NCBI GenBank assembly: GCA_965224085.1
Contig: CBDCYI010000009.1
Span: 628,162 to 692,161, forward strand
From: Candidatus Marinacidobacterales bacterium
GTDB taxonomy: Bacteria > Acidobacteriota > Vicinamibacteria > Marinacidobacterales > SMYC01
Direction: 5' to 3'
Length of the DNA stretch: 64,000 nucleotides
The notes under the pieces are model-generated. The model had not been told where the DNA came from, ran no database searches, and saw nothing but the letters and a program-made list of their open reading frames with translations. Positions 6,440 to 37,938 of this stretch are shown here, in pieces. Both the position numbers and the translations under genes were made by a program. Numbering within the stretch: the stretch's first letter is position 1; every line of letters starts with the position of its first letter.

Positions 6440-6507
6440 CCAATGGTTGGTGTATGACCAACGCATAGTGTAGGGTAGAAGGTGTATATTTTATTCTACC
6501 TGGAGAG
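6440..6507 (+). promoter_or_regulatory. Putative vapBC promoter/operator: a TATATT -10 element (about 6485-6490) sits inside a perfect 7-bp inverted repeat GGTAGAA...TTCTACC (6474-6500), followed by a GGAGAG RBS.
   Basis: Palindrome read directly from the sequence. An upstream TTGACA is at 6389-6394. Type II antitoxins typically autoregulate through such operators. Confidence 0.45.
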
Positions 6508-9480: not shown

Positions 9481-10693
9481 CAGAGTCGTTCCGGTTCTTG
9501 GGTCAAACGGACGCGTGGGTTTTCATAATGCAGCGAACACAAAGGCTCCTTGCATCGTGATCGGACGAAAGGGATCGTTCGGGAAGGTAAACTATTCTGA
9601 ACGCCCTGTGTTTGCAATCGATACAACTTTCTTTGTGGATAACCGTTTTTCATCAGCTCATATTCGGTGGCTTTTTTTCCTCTTTGGTTGGCTTCGTCTG
9701 GATGAGGTAACGAGAGACTCAGCGGTACCTGGTCTCGACCGGGAGGATGCTTACCAGAAGCTCATAGTAGTGCCTCCTTTTTCAGAGCAAGCCGCCATCG
9801 TCCGCTACCTCGACCATGCGGATCGTCGCATCCAGCGCTACATCCGCGCCAAGCAGAAGCTGATCACGCTGCTGGAGGAGCAGAAGCAGGCCATCATCCA
9901 GCGCGCCGTGACGCGCGGCCTCGACCCCAACGTCCGCCTCAAGCCCTCCGGCGTGGAGTGGCTGGGGAAAGTGCCGACGCATTGGGAAAGGCGAAGACTG
10001 AAGATTCTTCTCCGACCGGTTGACCGACGATCTGCCACTGGAGCGGAGACACTCCTGTCGTTGCGACGAGACCACGGAATCGTTATTTACGCTGAGCACT
10101 TCGCCAGACCTTCACAGAGCAGGTCCTTGGTGGGGTTTAAGCTCGTTGCCGTGGGTCAGCTAGTCGTCAACCGTCTCCAGGCTAACAATGGGTTGGTCTT
10201 TTGCTCGGGTATTAACGGGCTCGTGAGCCCTGACTACTCTGTGTTCGAGATGAGAAAACCACTCCAGATGCAGTACCTGAGCGATCTTCTTAGAACTTCT
10301 CGCTATCGTTCGCACTTCCGGCGAGAGTCCACAGGGCTCGGTACTGGGACCGCAGGTTTTCTACGACTTTATGACGACAAATTTCTTGAGACGGAAGTGT
10401 TCTTGCCGCCAGTACAGGAGCAGATTCTGATATCCAACTCACTCGCAAACGATATTGCCAAAGTCAAGCGTCTGATGGAACAACAGCAGCGGCAGCTACA
10501 GTTCTTTAATGAGTTCCGAACTCGGCTGATTACCGATGTCGTTACCGGCAAGCTCGATGTGCGGGAGGCGGCCTCCCGGCTGCCGGACGAGGTCGAGGAA
10601 CCGGAGCCGCTAGACGAGACCGACGCCCTCACCGACGGCGAGGAAGAGCCCACCGACGATCGCGACGCCGCCCCCGAAGAGGCCGCGGTGTGA
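9481..10693 (+). pseudogene. hsdS: Type I R-M specificity subunit HsdS with its N-terminal part removed. It keeps the end of target-recognition domain 1, the central conserved region, target-recognition domain 2 and the C-terminal coiled coil. Truncated by IS5-A.
   Basis: ...VPVLGSNGRVGFHNAANTKAPCIVIGRKGSFGKV...PPFSEQAAIVRYLDHADRRIQRYIRAKQKLITLLEEQKQAIIQRAVTRGLDPNVRLKPSGVEWLGKVPTHWE... shows classic HsdS conserved spacers. The reading frame starts inside the IS IR. Confidence 0.8.
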
Positions 10694-13692
10694 CGACCGA
10701 CACCAGTGAACGCGGCCTCGAACGGCTGATCTGCACCGCCCTGACCGGTAGTTCCTGCGATGCCGCGTTGGCGCAGGCAGGCTTGGAAGACGAAGCCGCC
10801 ACCCCCTCGGACGGGGTCGGCTGGATCTGCGGCGCCCCCAACGACTACGACCGCGAGTACACGGTCGATCTGGCGCAGCTCCTCGCGTTCCTGGTCGAAA
10901 CGCAACCGGATGCGTTCGAGGGGCTGCGTCTCGAAGACGATGGCCCAGCACGCCGGAAGTTCCTGGCCCGCCTCCAAGGTGAGGTCCGCAAGCGCGGCAT
11001 CATCGACGTACTCCGCAAAGGGGTCAAGGACGGGCCGCATCACGTCGAGCTCTTCTACGGCACGCCGTCTTCCGGCAACCCACTCGCCGCTGAACGCTAC
11101 GCCCAGAACCGCTTCTCGGTCAGGCGCCAGCTCCGCTACAGCCGCGACGAGACCCAGCGGGCGCTCGATCTCGGGCTGTTCATCAACGGCCTGCCGGTTG
11201 CCACGTTCGAGCTGAAGAACAGTCTCACCAAGCAGACGGTCGAGGACGCCGTGGAGCAGTACAAGCGTGACCGCGACCCGCGCGAGAAGCTCTTCGAGTT
11301 CGGCCGCTGCGTGGCGCACTTCGCGGTGGACGACCGCGCGGTGCAATTCTGCACGCACCTCAATGGAAAGGGCTCGTGGTTCCTGCCCTTCGACCAGGGC
11401 TGGAACGACGGCGCCGGCAACCCGCCGAATCCGAACGGTCTCAAGACCGACTACCTGTGGAAGCGGATTCTCACCCGCGACGGGCTGACCGACATCCTGG
11501 AGAACTACGCGCAGGTCGTCGAAACCAAGGATGAGAAGACGGGCAAGAAGAAGAGGAAGGTGCAGATCTGGCCGCGCTACCACCAACTCGATGTGGTGCG
11601 ACGGCTGCTGGCTGACACGCGCCGACACGGCGCAGGGAAGCGGTATCTCATCCAGCACTCGGCCGGCAGCGGGAAGTCGAACTCCATCGCCTGGCTCGCC
11701 CACCAGTTGATCGGGCTCAGGAAGGACGCCGCCGGGGTGTTCGACTCCATCATCGTGGTCACGGACAGACGCATTCTCGACCAGCAGATCTGCGCCACGA
11801 TCAAACAGTTCGCCCAGGTCGGGGCCACCGTCGGCCATGCCGAACGCTCGGCTAACCTCCGTGCGTTTATCGAGGGCGGCAAGAAGATCATCATCTCGAC
11901 GGTGCAGAAGTTCCCGTTCATCCTCGACGAGATCGGAAACGAGCAACGGGGCCGGCGCTTCGCCATCATCATTGACGAGGCGCATTCGAGCCAGACCGGC
12001 AAGACCTCGGCAGCGGTCAGCGTGGCGCTCTCCGAGGCGGGCGCTGCCGAGGATGATGAGACCACCGAGGACACGATCAACCGCATCATGGCTGCTCGGA
12101 GACTTCTCCCGAACGCGAGCTACTTCGCCTTCACCGCCACGCCCAAGAACAAGACGCTGGAGATCTTCGGCGAGGCGTACGACGCGGGCGGCCAGACCAG
12201 GCACCGCCCCTTCCACAGCTACACCATGAAGCAGGCGACCCAGGAGGGCTTCATCCTAGACGTGCTGCGGCACTACACGCCAGTCGAGAGCTACTACAAG
12301 CTCATCAAGAAGGTCGAGGAGGATCCCGAGTTCGACACCAAGCGCGCCCGGAAGAAGCTGCGCCGCTACGTGGAGGGCCACGATTATGCCATCCGGCTCA
12401 AGGCCGAGATCATGGTGGACCACTTCCACGAACAGGTGCTGGCGCTCAACAAGATCGGAGGCAAGGCTCGCGCGATGGTGGTGACGGGAGGCATCGAGCG
12501 CGCGATTCAGTATTACCACGCAATCCGGCAGTACCTTCTGGAGCACAAGAGCCGGTATCAGGCCATCGTCGCCTTCTCAGGCGAGCACGAGTATGGCGGG
12601 GTGCAGGTCAGTGAGTCGTCCCTCAATGGCTTCCCGTCCGGGCGGATCGCTGACAAGATCCAGCAGGACCCGTATCGGTTCCTCATTTGTGCCGACAAGT
12701 TTCAGACCGGGTACGACGAGCCACTGTTGCACACGATGTACGTGGACAAGATCTTGTCCGGGATCAAGGCGGTCCAGACGCTGTCGCGTCTCAATCGGGC
12801 GCACCCGCAGAAACACGACGCGTTCGTGCTCGATTTCATGAACGATGCCGACACCATCCAGGAGGCGTTCGCTGACTACTACCGGACGACGGTCCTGAGC
12901 GAGGAGACCGATCCCAACAAGCTGCACGACCTCAAGGCCGCGCTCGATGGCTACCAGGTGTATGCCGACGCAGAGATCGACCAGCTCGTGACGCTCTACC
13001 TGGGTGGGGCCGACCGCGACCAGCTCGACCCCATCCTCGACGCCTGCGTCGCGGTCTACAAGGAACGGCTCGACGAGGACGGGCAGGTGGACTTCAAGGG
13101 CAAGGCCAAGGCGTTCGAGCGCGCGTACGGCTTCCTCGCCTCAATCCTGCCGTACACGCACGCCGAGTGGGAGAAGCTCTCTATCTTCCTGAACTTCCTT
13201 GTGCCGAAGCTTTCCGCGCCTGTGGAAGAGGATCTGTCCAAAGGCATCCTTGAGTCCATCGACATGGACAGCTACCGGGTCGAGAAGAAGGCGGCGAGAC
13301 ACGTCCAACTGGCGGACGAGAACGCCGAGATCAAGCCGGTTCCGACTAACGGCGGCGGCCACAGGCCGGAACCCGAACTCGACCGCCTCTCGAACATCCT
13401 CAAGACCTTCAACGACCAGTTCGGGAACATTCCCTGGACCGACGGCGACCGCGTCCACCGGCTCATCACGGAGGACATCCCGAACCGAGTGGCGGCCGAC
13501 CGGGCCTACCAGAACGCCAAGCAGAACTCCGACAAGCAGAACGCGCGGATCGAGCACGACAAGGCGCTCCGGCGGGTGATGACGGCGCTGCTGCAGGACG
13601 ACACGGAGTTGTTCAAGCAGTTCAGCGACAACGAGTCGTTCCGGCGGTGGCTGACGGACACGATCTTCTCGATCACCTACGAGGCTGCGTAG
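10690..13692 (+). CDS. hsdR: Type I restriction endonuclease subunit HsdR, 1000 aa, apparently intact.
   Basis: HsdR N-domain (FATFELKNSLTKQTVEDAVEQYKRDRDP...), helicase motif I (QHSAGSGKSN), DEAH (IIIDEAHSSQTG), and a 4-bp overlap with hsdS (GTGTGA). Confidence 0.9.
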   Translation: MTTDTSERGLERLICTALTGSSCDAALAQAGLEDEAATPSDGVGWICGAPNDYDREYTVDLAQLLAFLVETQPDAFEGLRLEDDGPARRKFLARLQGEVRKRGIIDVLRKGVKDGPHHVELFYGTPSSGNPLAAERYAQNRFSVRRQLRYSRDETQRALDLGLFINGLPVATFELKNSLTKQTVEDAVEQYKRDRDPREKLFEFGRCVAHFAVDDRAVQFCTHLNGKGSWFLPFDQGWNDGAGNPPNPNGLKTDYLWKRILTRDGLTDILENYAQVVETKDEKTGKKKRKVQIWPRYHQLDVVRRLLADTRRHGAGKRYLIQHSAGSGKSNSIAWLAHQLIGLRKDAAGVFDSIIVVTDRRILDQQICATIKQFAQVGATVGHAERSANLRAFIEGGKKIIISTVQKFPFILDEIGNEQRGRRFAIIIDEAHSSQTGKTSAAVSVALSEAGAAEDDETTEDTINRIMAARRLLPNASYFAFTATPKNKTLEIFGEAYDAGGQTRHRPFHSYTMKQATQEGFILDVLRHYTPVESYYKLIKKVEEDPEFDTKRARKKLRRYVEGHDYAIRLKAEIMVDHFHEQVLALNKIGGKARAMVVTGGIERAIQYYHAIRQYLLEHKSRYQAIVAFSGEHEYGGVQVSESSLNGFPSGRIADKIQQDPYRFLICADKFQTGYDEPLLHTMYVDKILSGIKAVQTLSRLNRAHPQKHDAFVLDFMNDADTIQEAFADYYRTTVLSEETDPNKLHDLKAALDGYQVYADAEIDQLVTLYLGGADRDQLDPILDACVAVYKERLDEDGQVDFKGKAKAFERAYGFLASILPYTHAEWEKLSIFLNFLVPKLSAPVEEDLSKGILESIDMDSYRVEKKAARHVQLADENAEIKPVPTNGGGHRPEPELDRLSNILKTFNDQFGNIPWTDGDRVHRLITEDIPNRVAADRAYQNAKQNSDKQNARIEHDKALRRVMTALLQDDTELFKQFSDNESFRRWLTDTIFSITYEAA

Positions 13693-13792
13693 AGGGCTCG
13701 GGCTCCCGAGCTGGCTGACGAGGGAGGGCGCGAGTACCCGCTCAAGCATTGCCGGACCCTGATTGAGGCCGAATCCGAGGCAAGTAAGGACA

Positions 13793-14116
13793 CCAAGGAG
13801 GCCCAAGCCCACCTGGACCAGAACGTGCTAGCCGGCTACGCCACGGTAGCCCTGGCCTCGATGTTGGACCCCTCGGGTGACCTCTTTTCCGATGCCGTAC
13901 GGCCCGGTCAGCGCCTGTTCTCCTACTTTGCGCAAACGTGGCACTCGAAAATCGCGATTAGAGACGAAACCCGAAAATGACGCCAGTTCAGCCCTTCCAG
14001 TGCGTCTCTGGTGCCACCTACCCCTGCAAAACCCCGCCAACCGCGCGGAAAATCTCATCCGTCTCTGCAGTGCCACAATTTGCAAGACTGGGTGGCGGAT
14101 GGCGCAGTCTGGAGCT
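13793..14116 (+). repeat. Copy R1 of a ~320-bp sequence that natively flanks the 3' end of tRNA-Ser (compare 40878-41196). It ends in ...gggtggcgga, which is the last 7 nt of the tRNA (TCCGCCA) on the other strand.
   Basis: About 85% identity to 40878-41196. The boundary falls exactly at tRNA position -7 from the 3' end. Confidence 0.8.
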
Positions 14117-14277
14117 ATCCGGTCTCTGGGTTTATGGGCAGTTATGGGCAGTCTCTAAAAAGGGCAGAGTTTCAAGCCGGTCATCGACCCTCCACAGGCC
14201 GACGTCGAACTCGAAGTACTATTTGCACCATACGCTGATCCGACTCGAAGCAGATCTGGCTCTAGAGTTTCCGTGCT

Positions 14278-14505
14278 GTCTGGTCCGCCACCAAGTCCGG
14301 CCAATTGCGGCACTGCAGAGACGGGCGGGATTTTCCACGCGGTTGGCGGGGTTTTGCAGGATTAAGTGGCACCAGAGACGCGCTAGAAGGGCTGAAAAGG
14401 CCTCATTTTCGGTTTTGGTCTCTAATCGCTATTTTCGAGTGCCACGTTTGCGCCCAAATAGGAGAACGGGCGCTGACAGGGCCGTGCCGCGTCGGAAAAG
14501 AGGCC
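14278..14505 (-). repeat. Copy R3, inverted relative to R1. It starts with the tRNA 3'-end fragment (tccgccacc) and runs about 225 bp until it is cut by the IS110 end.
   Basis: The reverse complement of 14290-14470 matches 13925-14100 and 41020-41190. R1 and R3 form a large inverted repeat around a 161-bp spacer (14117-14277). Confidence 0.8.
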
Positions 14506-14512
14506 GCCCGAG

Positions 14513-15867
14513 GGTACTTTCGACTGACACTCCCGGCCGAAGGCATTTTTCATGATATGGATTGATCGGGAACGAGGCTGAAGCCGAGTCGGGTAGCTTT
14601 GCGTCGGAGATTACTCAGGAGGCGTTGCTGGTATTGCCTTTCATAGGCGTCCTGACCGAGCTCAATGAACTCCTCTCCAGTCGCAAGCATGCGGAAGTAG
14701 ATGGTCGCTATTTTACGGGCGGTAGCTGTGATGGCCTTTGGAGCACCTCGTCGCGATCGGATTCGTCGATAGAAAGCGCCGAGCGCGGTTTGGGTATTGC
14801 GGACAGCGCACGCGGCGAGGCGAAAGAGTTTTGCAGCACGACTGGAGCTCATTGGGGTGGCCCGGCGAAAGATTCGACCAGCGGACTCCTTATTATTCGG
14901 TGCGAGAGCTAGCCATGAGGTGAAGTGCTTGTCACTTTTCCACGGGCTCATGTCGCAACCGGTTTCTCCTACGAGCTGCAGAACGGCATAGCTACCTAAG
15001 CCGGGAACCCTGGTTAGGTCCACCCCCGTGAGTCCCAATAGAGACTCAGCGAGCGGAAAGCGCGGCCCGTTGCCGCTACGCGCTCGCCGTGTCCGTGGTT
15101 TCGGCTTAGGCCGAGCGTCCTGAGGCCGGGTCTCCAATTTGGACAGGCATCTCTCGATCCGCTTGTCACAGTCTTCCATTTTCTCTTGATAGAAATCGTA
15201 CAACTCCACCGACTGTTGAAGAGCGAAAACATGCTCGCTCCGATAGTTACCTTCTAAGGCTTTCGCGATCGTGGCCTCATCGTTGTGGCAACGTTCATGC
15301 CTCAGTTTTGCTAGGTCACGAGGATCTCGCTCTCCTCTCAAGATCGCTCGGATGATCGCAAGGCCGGTGACTCCGGTCACGTCGCGCAGGACGTGTTGTA
15401 GCTGGAGCCCCATTTGGTTGAGCGCTTTGTGCATATGCTGAATGTGGCGAGCCGCTGACTCCACCAGCGAGCTTCGTTGGCGGGTGTATGCCCTTAGCTC
15501 GCAAATCGCCGATTCCGGCCGAAAGGTTTTTGGGAGTAGCCCGAATGTATGCAGCTGTTGCAGCCACTCCGCATCCGACACGTCTGACTTGCGCCCAGAT
15601 ACGTTTTTCACTTTGCGAGCATCGACCAGATAGACTTCAAATCCCTCGTCTTCCAACAACTCGTACAGTGGAATCCAATAAACTCCGGTCGACTCCATCG
15701 CCACCGTGCACACGCCGCACGCCTTCAGCCAATTGGCCAGCTCTCGCAGCGAGCATACAAAGCTCTGAAACGTGCGGACATGTTCGCCCTCAGGAGTGCG
15801 CCCCTTCGGGACTGCCGCCACGATTGACTCCGCTCCAATATCAATCCCTGCAGCATCTAGATTTACC
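14513..15867 (-). mobile_element. IS110-family element type a, 1355 bp, with no obvious IRs and very short non-coding ends.
   Basis: Identical in length and about 99% in sequence to 20102-21456. Its ends were defined by where the two copies diverge from their flanks (...gtcgaaagtacc / ggtaaatctag...). Confidence 0.8.
14550..15866 (-). CDS. IS110-family (DEDD) transposase, about 438 aa. The true start codon is uncertain.
   Basis: ...NLDAAGIDIGAESIVAAVPKG... (N-terminal DEDD region) ...TGVYWIPLYELLEDEGFEVYLVDARKVKNVSGRKSDVSDAEWLQQL... C-terminal transposase_20-like region. Confidence 0.8.
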   Translation of the reverse strand, partial: VNLDAAGIDIGAESIVAAVPKGRTPEGEHVRTFQSFVCSLRELANWLKACGVCTVAMESTGVYWIPLYELLEDEGFEVYLVDARKVKNVSGRKSDVSDAEWLQQLHTFGLLPKTFRPESAICELRAYTRQRSSLVESAARHIQHMHKALNQMGLQLQHVLRDVTGVTGLAIIRAILRGERDPRDLAKLRHERCHNDEATIAKALEGNYRSEHVFALQQSVELYDFYQEKMEDCDKRIERCLSKLETRPQDARPKPKPRTRRARSGNGPRFPLAESLLGLTGVDLTRVPGLGSYAVLQLVGETGCDMSPWKSDKHFTSWLALAPNNKESAGRIFRRATPMSSSRAAKLFRLAACAVRNTQTALGAFYRRIRSRRGAPKAITATARKIATIYFRMLATGEEFIELGQDAYERQYQQRLLSNLRRKATRLGFSLVPDQSIS

Positions 15868-15883
15868 GTGTCGAGCTCGTGCG

Positions 15884-16969
15884 GCGTTGTTGCACCGCTC
15901 TTGGCTGAGCGCGAAATCTACCTATGGTGGTGGCCGAGGTAATGTTCGACCATGAAGTATCCCAAGCGCAGCCAGTACAAGCACGCGAAGCAGAAGAAGT
16001 ACCACGTTTCCAACTGGGCGGAATACAACGAAGGGCTGCGCCGCCGGGGCGATTTGACGGTCTGGTTTGACGAGGAGGCAATCGCGAACTGGAAGGCCGA
16101 CAAGAGCGGTAAGCCTGGCGGTCAACGGGTCTATTCAGAGATGGCGATTGAAACGGGCCTGGTTGTCCGGATGGTGTACAAGCTTGCCTACCGCCAAACC
16201 GAAGGCTTCTTGCACTCGATCGCCTCGCTTCTCCGGCTGTGTATCGAGATCCCGGACTACTCGACGTTGTGTCGGCGGTCGAGGCTGCTCCGCAAGAAGC
16301 TGCGGATTCGGAAAGCCGCAAGCAATCAACCAATCCACCTGATGATCGATAGCACGGGCTTGAGGATTCATGTTGGAACCACCCGCAAACCGCCAAAGCA
16401 GCGCGCCTGGCGCAAGTTGCACATCGCCGTTGATCGCAAGACCGGCAACATTGTTGCGTCCGAACTGACGGCGTCACGAGCTCGCGACGCAACGCGAGTC
16501 CCCCCTTTGCTAACACAGATTCAAGCACCTATAGCGTCGGTGGCGGCGGACAGTGCATACGACAAGGAAGCGGTCTACGAAGCCATCGAAGCGCACAGTC
16601 CTGGACGAAGGACGCGCGTGGTGATTCCGCCGCAACGAAACGCCACGCTCAGTCAGAATTCGAACACCGCCATGCGGGAACGCGACCGCCATATTCGTGC
16701 AATCGAAAGACACGGCCGACGTGAATGGTACAAGCTCTCAGGCTGCACCGAGCGAAGCATGGTGGAGAACGCGGTCTATCGTTACAAGGCGATCATGGGG
16801 CCCGAGATGCGGGCTCGAACGTTGGCGAGGCAACGAGTTGAACACCGAATTGGGTGCGAGATACTCAACAAGATGACCGCGCTCGGCATGCCCGATACTT
16901 ACTGCGCCGGGTGACTCTCCGACCGGCACAGGGAGGTCAGCGATTTGCTCCGGGCCGTGCAACAACGCC
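15884..16969 (+). mobile_element. IS5-family element type B, full-length reference copy (1086 bp) with IRs GGCGTTGTTGCAC(C/G)GC.
   Basis: Left and right IRs found. Three other copies in the window share the ends. Confidence 0.9.
15952..16914 (+). CDS. IS5-family DDE transposase (type B), 320 aa.
   Basis: Same architecture as the type A transposase (KRSQYKHAKQKKYHVSNWAEYNEGLRRRGDLTVW...). Intact ORF. Confidence 0.9.
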   Translation: MKYPKRSQYKHAKQKKYHVSNWAEYNEGLRRRGDLTVWFDEEAIANWKADKSGKPGGQRVYSEMAIETGLVVRMVYKLAYRQTEGFLHSIASLLRLCIEIPDYSTLCRRSRLLRKKLRIRKAASNQPIHLMIDSTGLRIHVGTTRKPPKQRAWRKLHIAVDRKTGNIVASELTASRARDATRVPPLLTQIQAPIASVAADSAYDKEAVYEAIEAHSPGRRTRVVIPPQRNATLSQNSNTAMRERDRHIRAIERHGRREWYKLSGCTERSMVENAVYRYKAIMGPEMRARTLARQRVEHRIGCEILNKMTALGMPDTYCAG

Positions 16970-17184
16970 ACGACGATGTGAAGTCCAGGCTACGCGTACG
17001 TGCGGCGGGTAACGGCCGTTCCATGGAAGAGGAGGCGCGCTTGATCCTCCGGGATGCGGTCGAACGCAGGCCGAGTTCCAATAACCTCGCAGACATCATC
17101 CGCGCGCACTTCGGGCCATCCAAGGGCGTGGATCTGGAGTTGCCACCGCGCGATGCGGGCCGAGAGCCACCGTCCTTCGATTGA
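16970..17184 (+). CDS. StbC/FitA-like ribbon-helix-helix antitoxin that has lost about its first 10 codons to the IS5-B insertion. The remaining frame starts inside the IS right IR.
   Basis: ...DDVKSRLRVRAAGNGRSMEEEARLILRDAVERRPSSNNLADIIRAHFG... matches plasmid-stability/VapB-type antitoxins, which begin M..LTIRNLDDEVK. Confidence 0.65.
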
Positions 17185-17194
17185 GGGAACGACC

Positions 17195-17617
17195 ATGTTT
17201 CTCCTGGATACCAACGTCGTATCCGAGTTGATGCGTACGTCGCCGGACTCCGCAGTCGAGGCATGGATTGCCGGCCACCCCGTCAAGGACCTGTTCTTCT
17301 CGGCGATTGGCGAATCCGAACTGCGCTATGGAGCCGCGATCATGCCGGTAGGCCAGCGCCGTGAAACGCTCGTCTCTGATATCGAGACGATGCTGCACGC
17401 TGCCTTCGAAAACCGCATATCGCCGTTCGACAGCGGGGCGGCGCGTGCTTATGCGAATATCGCCGCCAAGCGCCGGGGCGCAGGACGTGCCGTCGCTCCG
17501 GCGGACTGCCAGATCGCAGCGATTGCCCGGGCACGCGGCATGGCGGTGGCGACGCGCGACGTTCGAGACTTCGAGGATATGGGGGTCGAACTCTTCAATC
17601 AATGGGACGGCGCATGA
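17195..17617 (+). CDS. vapC: PIN-domain toxin VapC (second copy).
   Basis: MFLLDTNVVSELMRTSP...AIGESELRYGAAIMPVGQRRETL...CQIAAIARARGMAVATRDVRDFEDMGVELFNQWDG; PIN catalytic D/E residues. Confidence 0.85.
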   Translation: MFLLDTNVVSELMRTSPDSAVEAWIAGHPVKDLFFSAIGESELRYGAAIMPVGQRRETLVSDIETMLHAAFENRISPFDSGAARAYANIAAKRRGAGRAVAPADCQIAAIARARGMAVATRDVRDFEDMGVELFNQWDGA

Positions 17618-17820
17618 GCAGAACGACGGAAGCGTTTTCCCGCGTCAAAATCGACGCTCAAAAGCAGGAATTGCTGGCGAAACTTGAAGTGATGCAAAAA
17701 GAATTCAAAGCCGCCAAAAAATATGCGGTGAAGAAAAAGCTGGGGAACGAGATCGCCCTGACCATGGCGAGGCTGCGGGAGATCATCGAGAACCCACACG
17801 GGCCGCTCGGCATAGGTTGA
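17614..17820 (+). CDS. Small basic predicted coiled-coil ORF (68 aa) whose start overlaps the vapC stop (ATGA).
   Basis: MSRTTEAFSRVKIDAQKQELLAKLEVMQKEFKAAKKYAVKKKLGNEIALTMARLREIIENP. The 4-nt overlap suggests translational coupling. Lower GC than its neighbours. Confidence 0.3.
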   Translation: MSRTTEAFSRVKIDAQKQELLAKLEVMQKEFKAAKKYAVKKKLGNEIALTMARLREIIENPHGPLGIG

Positions 17821-17827
17821 ACTGTTG

Positions 17828-17860
17828 TTGGTCCAGCTCAATTTGACAGTACCGTTCGGA
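17828..17860. repeat. Solo copy of the IS6 terminal inverted repeat (ccagctcaatttgacagtaccgttcgg).
   Basis: 17/17 identity of ccagctcaatttgacag with the IS6 right end at 3211-3227. The following bases resemble the IS6 left end (aacggtaYtgtcaa). Confidence 0.55.
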
Positions 17861-18199
17861 GGCTCTTCAGCAAAAAGTCGATCCAGCGGTACGCGATCTT
17901 CTTTTTTGCGGATCACAACTAAGCTGCTGATTTATGATCTATTTCAAAAAGGCCGAGTTTTGGCACAGGACGGGGCCTGCTTACAAGTTTTTGGAATCGC
18001 GGGTCTTGAGTTCGTTTATGTTTTTGGACACCACGGGATTGGAAACATGCCGACCTTCTCCGGCTGAACCAAGGTAAGATTGTCAGTGCCGTAACCGACG
18101 AGGAGGTCGGAGTCTACAACTTGGTCCATACTCCCTATCGGCCGGCGTAGCCTTAGAGAGCTCCCCCTGAGAGTCTGAAATCAAGGAAGGTCCCACCCG

Positions 18200-19585
18200 G
18201 TGGCAAGGAAGAAGATCGATGCAGAGATCATGAAGCTCGGCCCAGACCACATCATGAAGTGGCTCGACCGTCTCTACGATCTCGTGGTGGAGGACAGTCC
18301 CATCCTAGAGTCGGCACAGGATATCGGGAACCACTACGCAGCGGGCACGGGCTCCCTGGAAGAGCGTGCCCGTCGATTGATTCGATGGCAGGTCACGAAG
18401 GCTGGCACGTCTGGATTTCTATCGGGACTCGGGGGCGTGATCACGATGCTGGTTGCGATTCCGGCCAACATTGCGAGTGTCATGTACGTTCAGATTCGCA
18501 TGATTGCGGCGGTCGCACATCTAGGGGGGCACGATATTCGGAACGACCAAGTTCGGACTCTGTGCTACGCCTGCATGTGTGGAAAGGCGGCGGGGGATGT
18601 CGTCAAAGGCGCCGGCATCAGTCTCGGCACCAAACTCACCGAGCAGGCCATCAAGAAAGTCGCCGGCAAGACGCTCAAGAACATCAACAAGAAGGTGGGC
18701 TTTCGTCTCGTTACCAAGTTTGGGGAGAAAGGCATCATCAACTTGGGCAAGATGGTCCCGATCGCTGGAGGTGTCGTAGGTGGATCTCTCGACGCTTCCA
18801 GCACCTACGTCATCGGGAAGATCGCCTGCACGACTTTTGTCGGAACCGGAGCGGATCCTAAACGATATGAACGATTTATTCTTACTCCAGAACAAGTAAG
18901 AGATCCTAATGTTGGACCTTCTCCAGCTGAAATAAATAGAAAAGCAATAGAAATTGCAGCTAGAGCTAGAGATATCCCGGAACCGCCGCATGGCGACTAT
19001 GTTAACGGCAAGGGCTACGGTGATGTTGGCGATGGCACCGCGAGCACGAGGCGAGTAGGCGGGGCCACTCCCACTAAAAACACGAAAGAGAGCATTCAAG
19101 CGGTCCTACACGAAGCAGCCGAGCGTCTCGGGGCGAAAGAATTCCTTGAGGAGGTGGCAAGCTTCATAGAGGCTCGAATGCCCAGCTACCGATGGCCCCA
19201 TGAGACTGGCTACTACTCCTTCACCCTGCACGAGCGGAGCGAGGGAAAGCCCACGGCGCGACGACGTTACGCAACCCTCTACCTCGACTTAAAACAGCCC
19301 GGCTCTCTGCTCCTCACTCTGACGCCGAGGGCAGTAGAAGTTGCATGCGATGATGCCGTAAACGAGTTCTGTACAGATGTGCCAGCGGCTTTCAGGAACC
19401 AGAAAAGTCAGAAAAGCTACAGCGCCATAGTTGTCGGTATGTCCAGAGACGAATGGACAACGATGTTGAAGCCTCTCGGGCAGCTGCTTTCAGCGATAGT
19501 CGATGGTTGGAAGCGAAGCGCGGCCGACGACAAGAAAAATGTACCCTCTGATGCTGACTCCCGCTCTCGCAACAATAATGACTAG
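18200..19585 (+). CDS. EcsC-family domain protein (N-terminal ~220 aa) fused to a ~240-aa C-terminal region of unknown function.
   Basis: GLGGVITMLVAIPANIASVMYVQIRMIAAVAHLGGHDIRNDQVRTLCYACMCGKAAGDV...NINKKVGFRLVTKFGEKGIINLGKMVPIAGGVVGGSLDASSTYVIGKIA follows the EcsC (PF12787) pattern. The C-terminal part (WPHETGYYSFTLHE...) is not recognised. Confidence 0.65.
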   Translation: MARKKIDAEIMKLGPDHIMKWLDRLYDLVVEDSPILESAQDIGNHYAAGTGSLEERARRLIRWQVTKAGTSGFLSGLGGVITMLVAIPANIASVMYVQIRMIAAVAHLGGHDIRNDQVRTLCYACMCGKAAGDVVKGAGISLGTKLTEQAIKKVAGKTLKNINKKVGFRLVTKFGEKGIINLGKMVPIAGGVVGGSLDASSTYVIGKIACTTFVGTGADPKRYERFILTPEQVRDPNVGPSPAEINRKAIEIAARARDIPEPPHGDYVNGKGYGDVGDGTASTRRVGGATPTKNTKESIQAVLHEAAERLGAKEFLEEVASFIEARMPSYRWPHETGYYSFTLHERSEGKPTARRRYATLYLDLKQPGSLLLTLTPRAVEVACDDAVNEFCTDVPAAFRNQKSQKSYSAIVVGMSRDEWTTMLKPLGQLLSAIVDGWKRSAADDKKNVPSDADSRSRNNND

Positions 19586-19604
19586 TCCCTAGCTGGCACT
19601 TCCA

Positions 19605-19900
19605 TTGAGCCCCTCATACGCCCTGCTAGATGATCGAATATGTGCTGAAGCGTTCAACGCGAAACTTGCGTCTGATAGCCCTTACCGAATCGAGATTGAG
19701 GCTGTGATCCCGGAGCCTTTCGTCGGTGCGGTCAAGACTGCTCCGGTGGTCGTTCTCCAGCTCAACCCTGGTTTCGGTCCTAAGGACGCCGCGTCGCATG
19801 CAGATCCGGAGTTTCGTACCCGTCTGGTCAAAATGCTCGGACGCCCAACGGGTCAGCAGGTTACACCTTTCCAGGATCGACGCCGACATCGAAGATCGGG
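19605..19900 (+). CDS. Hypothetical protein (about 98 aa recognisable). The frame reads into a 33-bp repeat and IS110-a, so the gene is probably disrupted.
   Basis: MSPSYALLDDRICAEAFNAKLASDSPYRIEIEAVIPEPFVGAVKTAPVVVLQLNPGFGPKDAASHADPEFRTRLVKMLGRPTGQQVTPFQDRR; no recognised family. Confidence 0.25.
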
Positions 19901-20101
19901 AAGCCGCATGAGTATTTTGACCTCACGAGTACGTCGTCTACCATCACCACGAGAGGAATCATCAAGGCAAGGAGAATCTGCTGCTGTTCCCAGCCAGCGA
20001 CCAGTTACCTCAGTCCGAGCGCAAGGTGCGCTCCCGTGAACGGCTTGGCGGGCTGCTACGTTTCTACCATCGGGAAGCCGCATGAGTATTTTGACCTCAC
20101 G
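19895..20101 (+). repeat. Two perfect 33-bp direct repeats (atcgggaagccgcatgagtattttgacctcacg) at 19895-19927 and 20069-20101, bracketing 141 bp. The second abuts the IS110-a left end and supplies the in-frame ATG of its transposase ORF.
   Basis: Exact repeat read directly from the sequence. Confidence 0.85.
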
Positions 20102-21419
20102 GGTAAATCTAGATGCTGCAGGGATTGATATTGGAGCGGAGTCAATCGTGGCGGCAGTCCCGAAGGGGCGCACTCCTGAGGGCGAACATGTCCGCACGTT
20201 TCAGAGCTTTGTATGCTCGCTGCGAGAGCTGGCCAATTGGCTGAAGGCGTGCGGCGTGTGCACGGTGGCGATGGAGTCGACCGGAGTTTATTGGATTCCA
20301 CTGTACGAGTTGTTGGAAGACGAGGGATTTGAAGTCTATCTGGTCGATGCTCGCAAAGTGAAAAACGTATCTGGGCGCAAGTCAGACGTGTCGGATGCGG
20401 AGTGGCTGCAACAGCTGCATACATTCGGGCTACTCCCAAAAACCTTTCGGCCGGAATCGGCGATTTGCGAGCTAAGGGCATACACCCGCCAACGAAGCTC
20501 GCTGGTGGAGTCAGCGGCTCGCCACATTCAGCATATGCACAAAGCGCTCAACCAAATGGGGCTCCAGCTACAACACGTCCTGCGCGACGTGACCGGAGTC
20601 ACCGGCCTTGCGATCATCCGAGCGATCTTGAGAGGAGAGCGAGATCCTCGTGACCTAGCAAAACTGAGGCATGAACGTTGCCACAACGATGAGGCCACGA
20701 TCGCGAAAGCCTTAGAAGGTAACTATCGGAGCGAGCATGTTTTCGCTCTTCAACAGTCGGTGGAGTTGTACGATTTCTATCAAGAGAAAATGGAAGACTG
20801 TGACAAGCGGATCGAGAGATGCCTGTCCAAATTGGAGACCCGGCCTCAGGACGCTCGGCCTAAGCCGAAACCACGGACACGGCGAGCGCGTAGCGGCAAC
20901 GGGCCGCGCTTTCCGCTCGCTGAGTCTCTATTGGGACTCACGGGGGTGGACCTAACCAGGGTTCCCGGCTTAGGTAGCTATGCCGTTCTGCAGCTCGTAG
21001 GAGAAACCGGTTGCGACATGAGCCCGTGGAAAAGTGACAAGCACTTCACCTCATGGCTAGCTCTCGCACCGAATAATAAGGAGTCCGCTGGTCGAATCTT
21101 TCGCCGGGCCACCCCAATGAGCTCCAGTCGTGCTGCAAAACTCTTTCGCCTCGCCGCGTGCGCTGTCCGCAATACCCAAACCGCGCTCGGCGCTTTCTAT
21201 CGACGAATCCGATCGCGACGAGGTGCTCCAAAGGCCATCACAGCTACCGCCCGTAAAATAGCGACCATCTACTTCCGCATGCTTGCGACTGGAGAGGAGT
21301 TCATTGAGCTCGGTCAGGACGCTTATGAAAGGCAATACCAGCAACGCCTCCTGAGTAATCTCCGACGCAAAGCTACCCGACTCGGCTTCAGCCTCGTTCC
21401 CGATCAATCCATATCATGA
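20082..21419 (+). CDS. IS110-family (DEDD) transposase, 445 aa as predicted. The ATG comes from the flanking 33-bp repeat.
   Basis: MSILTSRVNLDAAGIDIGAESIVAAVPKGR... is identical to the copy at 14550-15866. Confidence 0.8.
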   Translation: MSILTSRVNLDAAGIDIGAESIVAAVPKGRTPEGEHVRTFQSFVCSLRELANWLKACGVCTVAMESTGVYWIPLYELLEDEGFEVYLVDARKVKNVSGRKSDVSDAEWLQQLHTFGLLPKTFRPESAICELRAYTRQRSSLVESAARHIQHMHKALNQMGLQLQHVLRDVTGVTGLAIIRAILRGERDPRDLAKLRHERCHNDEATIAKALEGNYRSEHVFALQQSVELYDFYQEKMEDCDKRIERCLSKLETRPQDARPKPKPRTRRARSGNGPRFPLAESLLGLTGVDLTRVPGLGSYAVLQLVGETGCDMSPWKSDKHFTSWLALAPNNKESAGRIFRRATPMSSSRAAKLFRLAACAVRNTQTALGAFYRRIRSRRGAPKAITATARKIATIYFRMLATGEEFIELGQDAYERQYQQRLLSNLRRKATRLGFSLVPDQSIS

Positions 21420-21456
21420 AAAATGCCTTCGGCCGGGAGTGTCAGTCGAAAGTACC
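20102..21456 (+). mobile_element. IS110-family element type a, second copy (1355 bp), inserted into an IS256-like transposase gene.
   Basis: Same ends as the copy at 14513-15867. The right end abuts the truncated IS256-like ORF at 21460-21783. Confidence 0.8.
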
Positions 21457-21459
21457 TTC

Positions 21460-21783
21460 CTAGCCGTTCTTCGAACGCACGCGGGGTCGCTCAACTTGGA
21501 TGCGACGACCGCCGAAGCTCAGCTCGCCCGTCGTACGGCCCCACCGGTAGTGCGTTCGATCCTCTCGATGCTTGCCCCTCTTGCCGGCGAGCACTTCCGC
21601 TTCGCCAAGCAAGAGTGTGTTCAGTGCTTCGAGTCCTTGCTCATGGAGCCAACTCGTCAACTCCAACCTCGTCGACGCGATCCCGGCCATCATCGGCATG
21701 AGCATCTGGCGCAGATGCTCCACCACCCCCGGTTCCGAGCTTCCTCTCCCTTGATTCCTGACCTTCTTTGGTTTCTTATTCAT
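21460..21783 (-). pseudogene. IS256-family transposase N-terminal fragment (107 aa), truncated by IS110-a.
   Basis: ...RTHYRWGRTTGELSFGGRRIQVERPRVR fits the IS256 N-terminal motif (R.GYRNG...R.L.T..G.I.L.VPR.R). Confidence 0.55.
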
Positions 21784-21913
21784 CAGCGGCTCCTTGTCCC
21801 CCTGCGGAGACGGTTGTTTTTTTTGGGCAGACCTATTTTCAGGCCGGCCAAGGAGCCGCTGCTACTTCAAATTTTCAACATGGGCTGGGACATCCCCAAT
21901 GAGAGGGCCTGCA

Positions 21914-23485
21914 ATGATTAAAACGAATCGAAATCGTATCGGAAACCTTGCTTTGCTAACAGGTATTCTGCCTTGCCTAATTTGCTGGCAGAGCAGCTAT
22001 CTCTTCGCTCAGCACGTTGATTTGAATGTCAGTACAAAGACAGAGAGCTCTGACAAGCCTGTTGAATTGAGCGCGCCATCGGTAACGGAGCACACCATTA
22101 CAATGGATGGAGAATCCATAAACTACAGCGCTACTGTAGGTTATATGATTCAAACGGATGCAGATAACAAGCCCATTGGCTACTTTTTCTACACCGCATA
22201 CACAAAGCAGGATGAGGATTCCGTTTCTCGTCCGTTGACTTTCTGCTTCAACGGCGGACCAGGAAGCTCCTCGATCTACCTCCACATGCTGAACGTCGGG
22301 CCCCAAAAGGCCGTGCTTCTGAAAGACGGCAATACTCCGGCACCACCACCCCGTATGGTGGACAACGTAGATACATGGCTTGCCTTCACCGACCTCGTAT
22401 TCATCGATCCAATAGGCACAGGGTTCAGTTTTCCTCACCCAGGAGCGGACACGAAGCAATTCTGGGGTGCTGCAGCGGATGCCGAATCCGTTAGCGATTT
22501 CATTCGCATGTACATCACCGAGAACGCTCGCTGGCTGTCGCCGATTTTCGTGGCCGGTGAGAGTTATGGTGGCATCCGCGGTGCCCTGGTCGCGGAAGAG
22601 CTACAGAAAAATCGTCACATCAAATTAAATTTAAACGGTCTCATCTTTATCTCACCAGCTTATGATGGGCAGAGTCTGGCAACGAGCAAGCACAATCCTA
22701 CGTACCTCTCACAGTATTTTCCGACTTACGCCACGACTGCCTGGTACCACAAGAAACTGGATGACGACTTGCAGGGTGATTTCGACAAACTGGTCACGGA
22801 AGTGACGACATGGGCTAGCGAAGATTATATGGTGGCGCTCATCAAGGGCGACAAGCTCGATGATTCCAAAAAGGAAGAGATTGCCAGCCAGATGGCCCGC
22901 TACACCGGATTGTCCGAAGACTTCATTCTGGAGAAGAATCTTCGAATCACTTCCGCGGAATTCAGAGCAGGACTCTTGCGCGATGAGGGCATAAGTCTGC
23001 ACCGCGCCGATGCTCGATTCGAAGACGGAGCCTATGACTTGGCGAGGACTCTATCTCCACTATTTAACCACTACATCAGGAACGTCCTCGGGTTCGAAAC
23101 GAACAAAGCGTATGTCACGGGATGGTGGGCGTGTGTCGAGCGAAAGATAGAGTTCAATGAGCCGTGTTTCTCTAGCAGTGGTCTTCGTCCATGGCCATAC
23201 ACCGAAGGTACTGCTCCTTTCTCGGTCGTTCCCAACCTGAGTGAAGCAATGAAGAACAACAGGAATATGAAGGTCCTCGTCGCTGCGGGATACTACGATT
23301 ATGCCTGTCCCTTTGCGACCATAGACTATGCGATCGATCAACTACTCCTGAAACCTGAGTTGCAAAAAAACCTCGTTCGTCGCTACTACCAGGGAGGTCA
23401 CATGGTCTATATATCTCAGATCGAGATGACGAGATTCACCAAAGACGTGAAGGCATTCATCGTGAATTCCACAACTTCCGATTGA
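21914..23485 (+). CDS. Secreted S10-family serine carboxypeptidase-like protein, in a markedly low-GC (about 47-50%) gene.
   Basis: FCFNGGPGSSS and GESYGG motifs plus an N-terminal signal peptide. The GC of this gene is far below the flanking ~65%. Confidence 0.75.
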   Translation: MIKTNRNRIGNLALLTGILPCLICWQSSYLFAQHVDLNVSTKTESSDKPVELSAPSVTEHTITMDGESINYSATVGYMIQTDADNKPIGYFFYTAYTKQDEDSVSRPLTFCFNGGPGSSSIYLHMLNVGPQKAVLLKDGNTPAPPPRMVDNVDTWLAFTDLVFIDPIGTGFSFPHPGADTKQFWGAAADAESVSDFIRMYITENARWLSPIFVAGESYGGIRGALVAEELQKNRHIKLNLNGLIFISPAYDGQSLATSKHNPTYLSQYFPTYATTAWYHKKLDDDLQGDFDKLVTEVTTWASEDYMVALIKGDKLDDSKKEEIASQMARYTGLSEDFILEKNLRITSAEFRAGLLRDEGISLHRADARFEDGAYDLARTLSPLFNHYIRNVLGFETNKAYVTGWWACVERKIEFNEPCFSSSGLRPWPYTEGTAPFSVVPNLSEAMKNNRNMKVLVAAGYYDYACPFATIDYAIDQLLLKPELQKNLVRRYYQGGHMVYISQIEMTRFTKDVKAFIVNSTTSD

Positions 23486-23599
23486 TCAGTTAGCCTCTAA
23501 CCGGTCAGAAACCGGGGATTTTGTTCACACTTTTCTGCTGGCGCGAGGTAAGTGATTTCGTTTCAACAGCTTTCAGGTTTACCTGGCTAGAGTTAGAGT

Positions 23600-25092
23600 G
23601 CACGCTACTGAAAACGAGACCAAGGGCCTGGGAAGGCATATGGTCTATTTAAGGTGCTTCCGCCATCAAGTGATGGGATGGACTCCTCCGCTGACATAGA
23701 CGGCATCGATGTGCCAAAGTCAGTCGAAAGAACGCATCGAAAAAGGAGGAGTTCCGAATGAAAGATACGACGATCGCTGTGGATCTTGCAAAGAACGTCT
23801 TCGAGATTGCCATCTCGCGCGAAGCGGGGAAGGTGTCCAAGCAACTCCGTGTGAGTCGACCTAAGTTGGTGTCGTTTTTTGCGAAACAGAGCGCTGCCAC
23901 CGTGCTTCTCGAAGCCTGCGGCTCGGCTCACTTCTGGGCAAGGACGTTGCGACGGTTGGGACACGACGTCGTCCTGCTCCCACCTCACCTCGTAAGGCCG
24001 TATCGACGCGGGAGCAAGAACGACCGCGCGGACACCAAAGCTTTGCTCGAGGCTTACCGGAACGAGGAGATTCTTTCGGTGCCCATCAAGTCCGTGCGCC
24101 AGCACACCCTCGCCGCGCTCCATCGCCTACGCTCAGGATGGCTCTCCACACGGACCGCACGCATCAATGCCGTACGCGGGGTCCTGCGCGAGCTCGGACT
24201 CTTCATCCCCAAGGGCGCTCACTTCGTCGTGCCCGCCATCTCCGAGCTCGTCGAAGACGCTGATTCTGATTTGCCCGACGTGCTCCGTCCGCACCTGCGT
24301 GATGCGTGCTCCGAGATTCGAGAGCTCAAGGACAAGTGCGCTGGCATCGAGCACGAGCTCAAGGCGCTCACCAAGCAGCTTCCTGAGGTGCAACGACTTC
24401 TCACCATTCCCGGCATCGGACTTCTGACCGCGACCGCCATCGTCGGCTTCGTTGGGGATCTGCGCCGCTTCCCATCGGGACGCCGCTTCTCGAGTTACCT
24501 CGGCCTCGTTCCCAAAGAGAACTCCAGTGGTGACATTCGCCGCCTCGGGCGCATCACCAAGCGTGGCGACTCCTACCTCCGTACGCTCCTCACGCAGGGC
24601 GGACGCGCCGTGCTCCGAGCGGCCAACGTCAGCAAGAGCCCGCCCGACAAGCTCCGCGCCTGGGCGCGGAAGCTCCACCGCTCGCGGGGACACAACAAAG
24701 CCGCGATTGCTGTCGCCAACAAACTCGCCCGGATAGTCTGGGCCGTCTCCACCCGCGAGAGTGAATTCCAGTCGGTGCCCGCGGCCGCATAGAGGCTCCA
24801 CTTTCGTGTTTTCCTTCTTCCCTTCCAACAGAGGCTGCGACGATACCCATCCAACTGATGGCGTACCGGTCGGACCGGCGCGGGGTCAAGCCGATAGCAA
24901 CACTGGCCCTCAGAGGTCGCTCAAAGTGATTGGCTCCTCGCGCGCGGATTTTCCGTCATGGCCCGGAGCACCCAAGACGCTCCTCACTGAGGCCGTAGAT
25001 ATGTTTGCAGTCTGACCCACTCGTCACCGATTTGGACGAGCAGCTCTGAGGAAGACTTTTTTGAGAAAGGTGTTGATTGAGGAGTCCAGATA
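23600..25092 (+). mobile_element. IS110-family element type b. The left end is approximate. It has a ~300-bp non-coding right end after the transposase.
   Basis: Contains the 344-aa IS110-family transposase. The right end was defined by the tandem-duplication junction ...gaggagtccagata. Confidence 0.6.
23758..24792 (+). CDS. IS110-family (DEDD) transposase type b, 344 aa.
   Basis: MKDTTIAVDLAKNVFEIAIS... (DEDD N-terminus) ...LTIPGIGLLTATAIVGFVGDLRRFPSGRRFSSYLGLVPKENSSGDIRRLGRITKRGDSYLR... (C-terminal HhH/transposase_20). Confidence 0.9.
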   Translation: MKDTTIAVDLAKNVFEIAISREAGKVSKQLRVSRPKLVSFFAKQSAATVLLEACGSAHFWARTLRRLGHDVVLLPPHLVRPYRRGSKNDRADTKALLEAYRNEEILSVPIKSVRQHTLAALHRLRSGWLSTRTARINAVRGVLRELGLFIPKGAHFVVPAISELVEDADSDLPDVLRPHLRDACSEIRELKDKCAGIEHELKALTKQLPEVQRLLTIPGIGLLTATAIVGFVGDLRRFPSGRRFSSYLGLVPKENSSGDIRRLGRITKRGDSYLRTLLTQGGRAVLRAANVSKSPPDKLRAWARKLHRSRGHNKAAIAVANKLARIVWAVSTRESEFQSVPAAA

Positions 25093-25657
25093 TGGTGACA
25101 TTCGCCGCCTCGGGCGCATCACCAAGCGTGGCGACTCCTACCTCCGTACGCTCCTCACGCAGGGCGGACGCGCCGTGCTCCGAGCGGCCAACGTCAGCAA
25201 GAGCCCGCCCGACAAGCTCCGCGCCTGGGCGCGGAAGCTCCACCGCTCGCGGGGACACAACAAAGCCGCGATTGCTGTCGCCAACAAACTCGCCCGGATA
25301 GTCTGGGCCGTCTCCACCCGCGAGAGTGAATTCCAGTCGGTGCCCGCGGCCGCATAGAGGCTCCACTTTCGTGTTTTCCTTCTTCCCTTCCAACAGAGGC
25401 TGCGACGATACCCATCCAACTGATGGCGTACCGGTCGGACCGGCGCGGGGTCAAGCCGATAGCAACACTGGCCCTCAGAGGTCGCTCAAAGTGATTGGCT
25501 CCTCGCGCGCGGATTTTCCGTCATGGCCCGGAGCACCCAAGACGCTCCTCACTGAGGCCGTAGATATGTTTGCAGTCTGACCCACTCGTCACCGATTTGG
25601 ACGAGCAGCTCTGAGGAAGACTTTTTTGAGAAAGGTGTTGATTGAGGAGTCCAGATA
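25093..25657 (+). repeat. Head-to-tail tandem duplicate (565 bp) of the 3' end of IS110-b: the last 88 codons of the transposase plus the whole ~300-bp right-end non-coding region.
   Basis: 24528-25092 matches 25093-25657 nearly exactly. The duplicated partial ORF is at 25061-25357. Confidence 0.9.
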
Positions 25658-28783: not shown

Positions 28784-31951
<3,168 letters not shown>

Positions 31952-37925: not shown

Positions 37926-37938
37926 GGCCACGTCCTCC

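Follow-up and report, generated by a model that had tools for sequence, protein, structure and literature searches.

The Pfam domain EcsC is named after ecsC of Bacillus subtilis, whose product is an accessory of the EcsAB ATP-binding cassette (ABC) transporter. A related profile of the PADLOC collection, PDC-S29, belongs to a set of 145 phage-defence candidates (PDCs) derived by guilt-by-embedding, their genes lying within BREX, DISARM or type I restriction-modification (R-M) systems (bioRxiv 10.1101/2024.01.29.577857); the one further mention in the literature that we searched is a listing in a Streptococcus thermophilus genome (PMC11514479). Two further families matter here: DUF4268, a module for which a role in substrate recognition by type IV restriction enzymes of the GmrSD/Mdg kind has been proposed (PMC4619093; bioRxiv 10.1101/2025.02.28.640651), and Brig1 and Brig2, which are proven defence glycosylases with a uracil-DNA glycosylase (UDG) fold (PMC11078745; bioRxiv 10.1101/2025.10.29.685425). 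We analysed a 64,000-nucleotide stretch of a Candidatus Marinacidobacterales genome (contig CBDCYI010000009.1; hereafter the window) and, within it, the block between the insertion sequences (ISs) IS5-B and IS110-a, which spans positions 16970–20101 according to a listing of open reading frames (ORFs) and direct reading. We consider it reasonably probable that this block is an IS-made mosaic in a defence-rich island, holding an intact, domain-shuffled, 461-residue member of the PDC-S29 family and, downstream of it, the dead stump of a Brig1-like glycosylase gene. The description as a mosaic is well supported: the toxin gene vapC and the gene encoding an EcsC module with a C-terminal domain (CTD) are its sizeable intact survivors that are not part of an IS.

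The EcsC fusion protein and its relatives

The 461-residue ORF (18200–19585, forward strand) is intact. Residues 10–215 of its product match PADLOC PDC-S29 with an E-value of 4.3e-81 (profile positions 9–214 of 220), and residues 51–211 match Pfam EcsC (PF12787) with 45.5 bits against a gathering score of 30.4. A sequence-only reading of this DNA had described an N-terminal EcsC domain fused to an unrecognisable C-terminal half, and had proposed the fusion as an undescribed one. Pfam bears out the N-terminal assignment; the fusion is not undescribed, since its N-terminal module is the one already catalogued as PDC-S29, and the C-terminal part is no orphan, its CTD being common to NucS_C-type proteins. 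Residues ~290–461 share 74% identity with the C-terminal domain of 360-residue proteins that carry an N-terminal NucS_C-type PD-(D/E)XK nuclease domain, and residues 1–217 are 93% identical to 394-residue EcsC-DUF4268 proteins of the same lineage. The relatives start with ATG and the window gene with GTG. Hydropathy revealed a glycine-rich hydrophobic hairpin at residues 68–109 and a second hydrophobic patch at 179–197.

The CTD matched no Pfam family. In the closest EcsC fusions its place is taken by DUF4268, and this likeness is positional only: homology of the CTD to DUF4268 (PF14088) was considered and dropped, as there was no Pfam match at E ≤ 10 and hhalign gave a probability of 0.1 against the DUF4268 region of P0003. 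Sequence searches of solved structures with the 461-residue protein, with the CTD, and with the glycosylase-family and EcsC profiles returned nothing meaningful. The linker between the two domains has a guanine + cytosine (GC) content of 0.50 and no homologues outside the lineage, and is probably a recombination scar.

Such a scar could also mean that the whole protein is a non-functional chimera, an accidental in-frame recombinant of an EcsC-DUF4268 gene and a NucS-CTD gene that is now decaying. Identity does break sharply at about residue 217 and resumes only at about 290, the GTG start departs from that of the relatives, and frameshifted fragments of both families abound in the lineage. Compared with the homologue in L001, an 8.13-Mb circular genome in which the protein is 87% identical, the ratio of nonsynonymous to synonymous substitution rates (dN/dS; small counts) was 0.82 overall and about 3.5 in the AT-rich linker, but 0.65 in the N-domain and 0.40 in the CTD, both below 1. 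Moreover, the three-part ORF has stayed open at 87–100% identity in two related genomes, namely the window together with L002 (one strain pair) and L001, and joining the EcsC module to a variety of domains, in modular fashion, is normal for this family. We regard the chimera as unlikely, while the weak purifying selection leaves open that the 461-residue gene is itself on its way out.

The EcsC module is widespread. We confirmed 583 genome loci with 48–72% identity in Proteobacteria, Firmicutes, Bacteroidota, Actinobacteria, Planctomycetota and other phyla, and found the module on 304 plasmids, most of which (268) come from Klebsiella. Fusions form a sizeable minority, with DUF4268, GNAT, TerB, SHOCT, a zinc ribbon, an N-terminal REase-ARP endonuclease or a septin/dynamin-like GTPase as partners. 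As for context, the EcsC locus of L001 has a type I CRISPR-Cas/WYL cluster (cas3) on one side and, on the other, IS elements and PLD, ubiquitin-like/ThiF/BubE and HSDR_N genes; an EcsC-DUF4268 gene (L007) is surrounded by three serine recombinases, a reverse transcriptase, a kinase and a type I R-M system. The island of the NucS-CTD protein includes ApeA-HEPN and a helicase-MZB-PLD set, the latter DISARM-like by our reading. On plasmid pALVIN01 the EcsC gene lies directly upstream of csm6, csx16, cas2 and cas1, an arrangement reminiscent of the EcsC-like genes that others have noted in jukA operons and in a type III-E locus. The neighbourhood of defence genes and mobile elements noted in the sequence-only reading was thus upheld, with hsdS and hsdR of the window genuine and relatives near CRISPR, type I R-M, DISARM-like and Abi genes. 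That reading had also suggested a check on whether EcsC fusions recurrently adjoin R-M or toxin-antitoxin (TA) genes: close relatives do lie in defence loci, but type I R-M components stand beside only about 3–4 of 37 standalone EcsC loci. The 148 immediate neighbours of these 37 loci, from 123 Pfam families, included no recurrent partner.

A housekeeping role without any part in defence, as a membrane protein like B. subtilis EcsC, would fit the name of the Pfam domain, a standalone homologue (L009) that lies amid the ordinary genes for CinA, citrate synthase and a Nudix protein, and the many ordinary metabolic genes next to other standalone homologues; conserved housekeeping contexts with no enrichment in defence islands had been named beforehand as grounds to refute a defence function, and L009 is one homologue among housekeeping genes. 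However, the ABC-transporter side of this account is missing, as no ABC-transporter family was among the 25 commonest neighbour families of the 37 loci and the window block has no ecsA/ecsB operon. Fusion to a restriction endonuclease, a GTPase, GNAT, TerB and DUF4268, the presence on plasmids, the CRISPR and R-M genes around the module, and 50–60% identity across phyla, which points to horizontal spread, are likewise at odds with a housekeeping protein, and we hold this explanation to be improbable.

Two side observations concern the proteins of this lineage. In one of them (P0025, 475 residues) an AbiJ_NTD4 gene continues by read-through into a gene for EcsC-DUF4268, and many others appear frameshifted, which could reflect either pseudogenisation or errors of long-read assembly.

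Gene remnants around the EcsC gene

The mechanically called ORF after the EcsC gene (19605–20039, 144 residues) had been seen as a protein of about 98 residues, without recognisable family and a possible partner of the EcsC fusion, that runs into a 33-bp repeat. The run into the repeat was confirmed; the partner turned out to be a truncated Brig1-like pseudogene. Genuine coding sequence is limited to 19605–19820 and, with about 72 codons, corresponds to roughly the first third of a protein of ~230 residues. Homology with L001 and with two further relatives (L003 and L004) runs from 18116 to 19820 and then stops. In all three relatives the CTD and the glycosylase form one uninterrupted reading frame, in which the glycosylase family's own start (M-x-N-P-W) is kept internally: L001 encodes a complete EcsC-CTD-glycosylase protein of 683 residues, and L003 and L004 carry a 5'-truncated copy of 299 residues with only the tail of the CTD and the glycosylase. 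In the window and in L002, which is a sister strain (99.7% identity over 16970–23672), a 1-nt insertion leads to a stop after ...NNND, and glycosylase codon 5 is changed from TGG to TAG. With this nonsense codon, and with homology ending at 19820, the window holds no complete glycosylase ORF. An EcsC or CTD gene adjoined none of 80 glycosylase-family loci, and a glycosylase or CTD gene none of 80 EcsC loci; the linkage, absent from these 160 other loci, is therefore peculiar to the lineage of the window.

The full-length glycosylase family comprises 52 proteins in a large database and 121 confirmed metagenome loci. It has no Pfam domain. Its AlphaFold2 model is confident (predicted local distance difference test, pLDDT, 94) and shows the predicted alpha/beta fold of UDG, and Brig1 was the sole NCBIfam model matched, by 34 of 38 members with a best E-value of 8e-11. 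The scores (25.6 bits for P0123, and at most ~40 bits in the family) remained far under the equivalog cutoff of 230 bits, and we therefore treat the proteins as a separate, distant Brig1-like family of putative glycosylases. Its members are standalone, some next to MmeI, resolvase, AbiEii, TrwB/conjugation genes or DUF5131 and others in ordinary contexts. In one locus (L006, 4466–9511) a full-length member, 44 bp downstream of an MmeI-type IIL R-M gene, overlaps a serine resolvase gene at the start of the latter; R-M system and glycosylase may form a mobile pair here. Two members of 355 residues (P0122 and P0124) have the Brig1-like domain fused to an N-terminal PF05597 (phasin-like) region.

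The IS-derived filler that follows the remnant gave only scattered blast matches, all in L003 (14721–15113), and its parent IS was not identified among the relatives compared. Within it, a peptide of 51 residues looks like the tail of an rve-type transposase, judging by the peptide itself; it had no Pfam match. The 33-bp unit consists of the last codons of this apparent transposase gene and a presumed IS terminus.

At the other end of the block, the antitoxin gene vapB has lost its beginning. Homology between the window and L002 starts exactly at 16970, and L002, without IS5-B or IS110-b upstream, carries an intact 80-residue allele that begins MASITIRNLDDDVK... Comparison with it showed that codons 1–9, which encode the beta-strand of the ribbon-helix-helix (RHH) fold, and the promoter are replaced by the end of IS5-B; a hybrid antitoxin ORF (16945–17184) is possible from a TTG at 16945 inside the IS5 end. 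The DNA across IS5-B from the vapB remnant is not vapB, hence a rearrangement rather than a simple insertion. Upstream of the intact vapB, L002 encodes a cysteine-rich protein of 316 residues (1077–2027) with no recorded Pfam match, which is absent from the window. The toxin VapC retains the acidic residues D5, E40/E42, D103 and D121 in its translation, matches NCBIfam VapC models at 2e-15, under their cutoff, and is encoded 7 bp after vapB. Accordingly, of the VapB-VapC pair proposed from sequence, both ORFs are present and VapC is intact, but the antitoxin is truncated by IS5-B. A second VapBC module, also proposed, was not found: phmmer searches of the window for a related pair gave self matches only.

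Direct reading confirmed the basic 68-residue micro-ORF (14 K+R against 8 D+E), whose start codon overlaps the vapC stop. It has no Pfam or PADLOC family, and PADLOC likewise matched neither vapB, vapC nor the ORF downstream of the EcsC gene. Among 1.84 billion representatives, HMMER found only five relatives, of 67–203 residues, and the metagenome scan for the 114-residue family gave no confirmed relative. Homology starts only at residue 15, so that 14 unrelated residues precede the C-terminal ~54 of a family of ~114; relatives of 114 and 203 residues begin ~47–60 residues earlier (MA.-YK..WE.ELERR...PHPDHIEI.L...), and the family ends in ...IGIG. The most plausible reading of the micro-ORF is that the 3' part of a gene of this family became joined behind vapC, and an in-frame ATG that overlaps the TGA by chance is not improbable. 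Read in this way, it gives no support at this locus to the third VapC-coupled component that had been suggested.

The idea that these pieces form one coherent defence or addiction module, with VapBC and the micro-ORF as a tripartite system and the EcsC fusion served by its downstream partner, can draw on the ATGA overlap, on the adjoining downstream ORF (fused in frame in L001, with the CTD-glycosylase junction also in L003 and L004) and on the defence-rich neighbourhood, but with vapB truncated, a micro-ORF that lacks the N-terminal half of so small a family, a downstream ORF with a nonsense codon and a third of its length, and no such pairing in either set of 80 loci, it is very improbable, and we describe the four items as juxtaposed fragments rather than as one cargo module.

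Between the micro-ORF and the EcsC gene lies the solo inverted repeat (IR) of an IS6 element that had been noted in the sequence-only reading and is confirmed here, at slightly refined positions (Table 1). It matches, in 21 of 21 positions, the left IR that accompanies the IS240-type transposase in L001, and the window contains two matches to this IR where 0.00 are expected. Next to it are two short dispersed repeats with the common core GAGTT..TTTTGG(A)CAC(A)GGACGGG. Further copies occur in the window at 816–840, in L002 at 608–663 and 866–906, and in L001 at 9796–9851, 12054–12093, 14968–15002 and 17878–17914, where they lie, inverted, on both sides of the gene for the 683-residue EcsC protein and one copy borders an IS6 left IR. 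Ends of miniature inverted-repeat transposable elements (MITEs), an IS target and a regulatory site are candidates for their nature.

Origin and possible function of the block

Our preferred reading is that of a mosaic, made by repeated IS activity in a variable island of a genome laden with ISs, around a domain-shuffled PDC-S29 protein. IS5-B has taken the 5' end off vapB, just one inverted repeat is left of an IS6 element, and IS-derived DNA stands where the gene after the EcsC gene once had its 3' two-thirds. On this reading the 461-residue protein is specific to the lineage and consists of a conserved EcsC module, a junk-like linker and an alpha/beta CTD derived from the NucS-type PD-(D/E)XK nuclease family. 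The ancestral protein may have been a membrane-tethered, DNA-recognising glycosylase or sensor directed against incoming, possibly base-modified, phage DNA. In the allele of the window the glycosylase effector would have been lost, and what remains, the EcsC module and a putative nucleic-acid-binding CTD, might act as a sensor-coupled membrane effector of the abortive-infection type, or might be drifting to loss. More generally, the EcsC module looks like a portable part of conflict systems that is probably associated with the membrane.

Several points weigh against this reading. Membrane association of the EcsC module is predicted from hydropathy, and selection on the window gene looks weakly purifying. 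The literature that we searched held no experiment on anti-phage activity of any PDC-S29 or EcsC-like protein, only listings (PMC11514479; bioRxiv 10.1101/2024.01.29.577857). The housekeeping surroundings of L009 count here too, as does the fact that most neighbours of the 37 standalone loci are ordinary or variable genes. Regarding the CTD, its sequence homology to DUF4268 is undetectable by Pfam (E ≤ 10) and hhalign. Its predicted model is of low confidence (pLDDT 61), and its matches to the double-wing/CyaY-like DNA-binding fold (MotA C-terminal domain, YjbR) are therefore only suggestive.

One step further, the 683-residue polypeptide, as a union of an EcsC-like membrane module, a double-wing-like nucleic-acid-binding domain and a Brig1-like glycosylase, might serve as an anti-phage DNA glycosylase that is tethered to the membrane and attacks base-modified DNA on its entry, with PDC-S29 as a portable membrane sensor or anchor that recruits a restriction endonuclease, a GTPase, a GNAT domain or a glycosylase. 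We find this doubtful; if it were true, the window would carry an allele of the system from which the effector has been deleted naturally. As it stands, the block carries little weight, being mostly gene debris with a key gene whose family has already been flagged as a defence candidate. However, the EcsC module, widespread, conserved across phyla and fused to conflict-type domains, is a reasonable target for defence screens, and the Pfam-less family of ~230 residues is a candidate for a new specificity of defence glycosylase. The natural EcsC-CTD-glycosylase fusion provides a Rosetta-stone hint that the EcsC module works with DNA-directed effectors.

Flanking elements and comparison with described systems

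The coordinates of the block and its flanks are collected in Table 1, which also refines the positions of the two flanking ISs, both of them real.

Table 1. Features of the block and of its flanking insertion sequences (window positions).
Feature	Position	Strand	Evidence and remarks
IS110-b	14510–15867	−	Near-identical inverted copy of IS110-a; inverted repeat of 1358 nt, ~100%
IS5-B	15883–16969	+	DDE_Tnp_1 transposase 15952–16914; right end cuts vapB; further copies in window
vapB, FitA-like RHH antitoxin, 5'-truncated	16970–17184	+	Pfam FitA-like_RHH 3e-13, profile positions 10–39 only
vapC, PIN toxin, intact	17192–17617	+	Pfam PIN 5e-16
Basic micro-ORF, 68 residues	17614–17820	+	ATG 17614 overlaps vapC TGA as ATGA
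Solo left IR, IS6/IS240-type, element body missing	17833–17853	−	Sequence GGTACTGTCAAATTGAGCTGG
Two short dispersed repeats	17919–17975, 17998–18037	+	blastn and sequence reading
EcsC-like/PDC-S29 module	18200–18850	+	Residues 1–217 of 461-residue protein
Linker	18851–19066	+	Residues ~218–289
CTD, tail and stop	19067–19585	+	CTD residues ~290–445
Brig1-like UDG-fold glycosylase gene remnant	19577–19820	+	Native ATG 19577; TGG>TAG at codon 5; mechanical TTG start 19605
IS-derived filler	19821–20101	+	Replaces 3' two-thirds of glycosylase gene
33-bp repeat	19895–19927, 20069–20101	+	Exact over 33 bp; 97% over 37 bp; chance expectation 0.02
3' end of apparent rve-type transposase gene	19930–20082	+	Last ~50 residues, ending ...RERLGGLLRFYHREAA before the stop
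IS110-a	20102–21459	+	DEDD transposase; starts exactly after second 33-bp unit

IS5-B has the terminal repeats GGCGTTGTTGCAC/GTGCAACAACGCC and is 95.6% identical to an IS5 of L001. Together with the block it is bracketed (15868–20101) by two ~100% identical inverted copies of IS110, the twin of IS110-a having been missed in the sequence-only reading. A composite transposon made of the two copies was considered as the origin of the cargo and rejected: the position of IS110-b is empty in L002, which carries the cargo with IS110-a alone, and the cargo thus predates the arrival of IS110-b. As to the elements themselves, IS110-a is inserted at the terminus of another IS remnant, past the stop of the apparent rve-type transposase, and an in-frame ATG at 20082, contributed by the flank, lengthens its transposase ORF to 445 residues; IS110-b has no such ATG, and its longest ORF starts from a GTG downstream of the N-terminal GIDIG motif. 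The low GC content that had been ascribed to the block is real (0.564, against 0.60 in the window and 0.633 in hsdR), yet the downstream S10 peptidase gene is lower still (0.50). An Rfam scan of 13500–22000 (E ≤ 0.1) found no RNA families.

The hsdS and hsdR genes lie about 4.5 kb upstream of the EcsC gene, with IS110-b, IS5-B and vapBC in between. The type I R-M system appears degraded (5185–9482 and 9470–13692): the start of hsdS coincides with the edge of an IS5 copy, several IS5 copies or fragments are found upstream (5185–6271, 7573–8398 and 8396–9482), and a scan of the large ORFs of the window showed no hsdM. Just downstream of hsdR, a repeat of ~170 nt forms an inverted pair (13930–14099 and 14284–14453; 88% identity) whose members are separated by 184 nt, and it recurs 27 kb away at 41021–41193 and in L002 (1–185); it contains no convincing ORF and gave no Rfam match in the part scanned. 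Beyond IS110-a, the window has insertions that are missing from L002 at 23673–25657 and 27052–27590, which shows very recent IS activity. One of them is a second IS110-family type (23758–24792), with a direct repeat of 300 nt (24528–24827 and 25093–25392, 565 nt apart). Further on, two paralogous genes of ~1055–1068 residues (28784–31951 and 34767–37973) stand 6 kb apart with ~75–79% DNA identity and are of the BNR/sortilin type according to the annotation of L002.

Compared with described systems, the left part of the block resembles a FitAB-like VapBC type II TA pair, with an RHH antitoxin gene followed by a PIN toxin gene that keeps its acidic residues. It differs in that the DNA-binding N-terminal strand of the antitoxin and the promoter are swapped for an IS5 end, and no genuine third component was found at this locus. 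With Brig1 and Brig2, of the UDG superfamily, the family of the downstream ORF shares a confidently predicted UDG-like fold and weak but consistent Brig1 matches, whereas its scores of at most ~40 bits fall well short of the cutoff of 230, and the window copy is a dead remnant of ~72 codons. The likeness to EcsABC of B. subtilis is confined to the Pfam EcsC domain: neither the block nor the 37 sampled loci contain ecsA or ecsB, and contexts and architectures differ. The EcsC-DUF4268 proteins share with the window protein the order of an EcsC module and then an alpha/beta domain of ~150 residues, while the C-terminal family is a different one. PADLOC PDC-S29 has its profile covered end to end by residues 10–215; its candidates were defined by their place in or next to BREX, DISARM or type I R-M systems, and the window gene has hsdS and hsdR in its wider neighbourhood. 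However, the PDC-S29-type proteins are mostly single-domain and ~210–260 residues long, and the 69 genome homologues span 172–310, whereas the window protein departs from this architecture with 461 residues, a linker and a rare CTD. The N-terminal family is thus already catalogued, and what this locus adds, as an incremental step, is the EcsC-CTD(-glycosylase) architecture and the recognition of a Brig1-like family.

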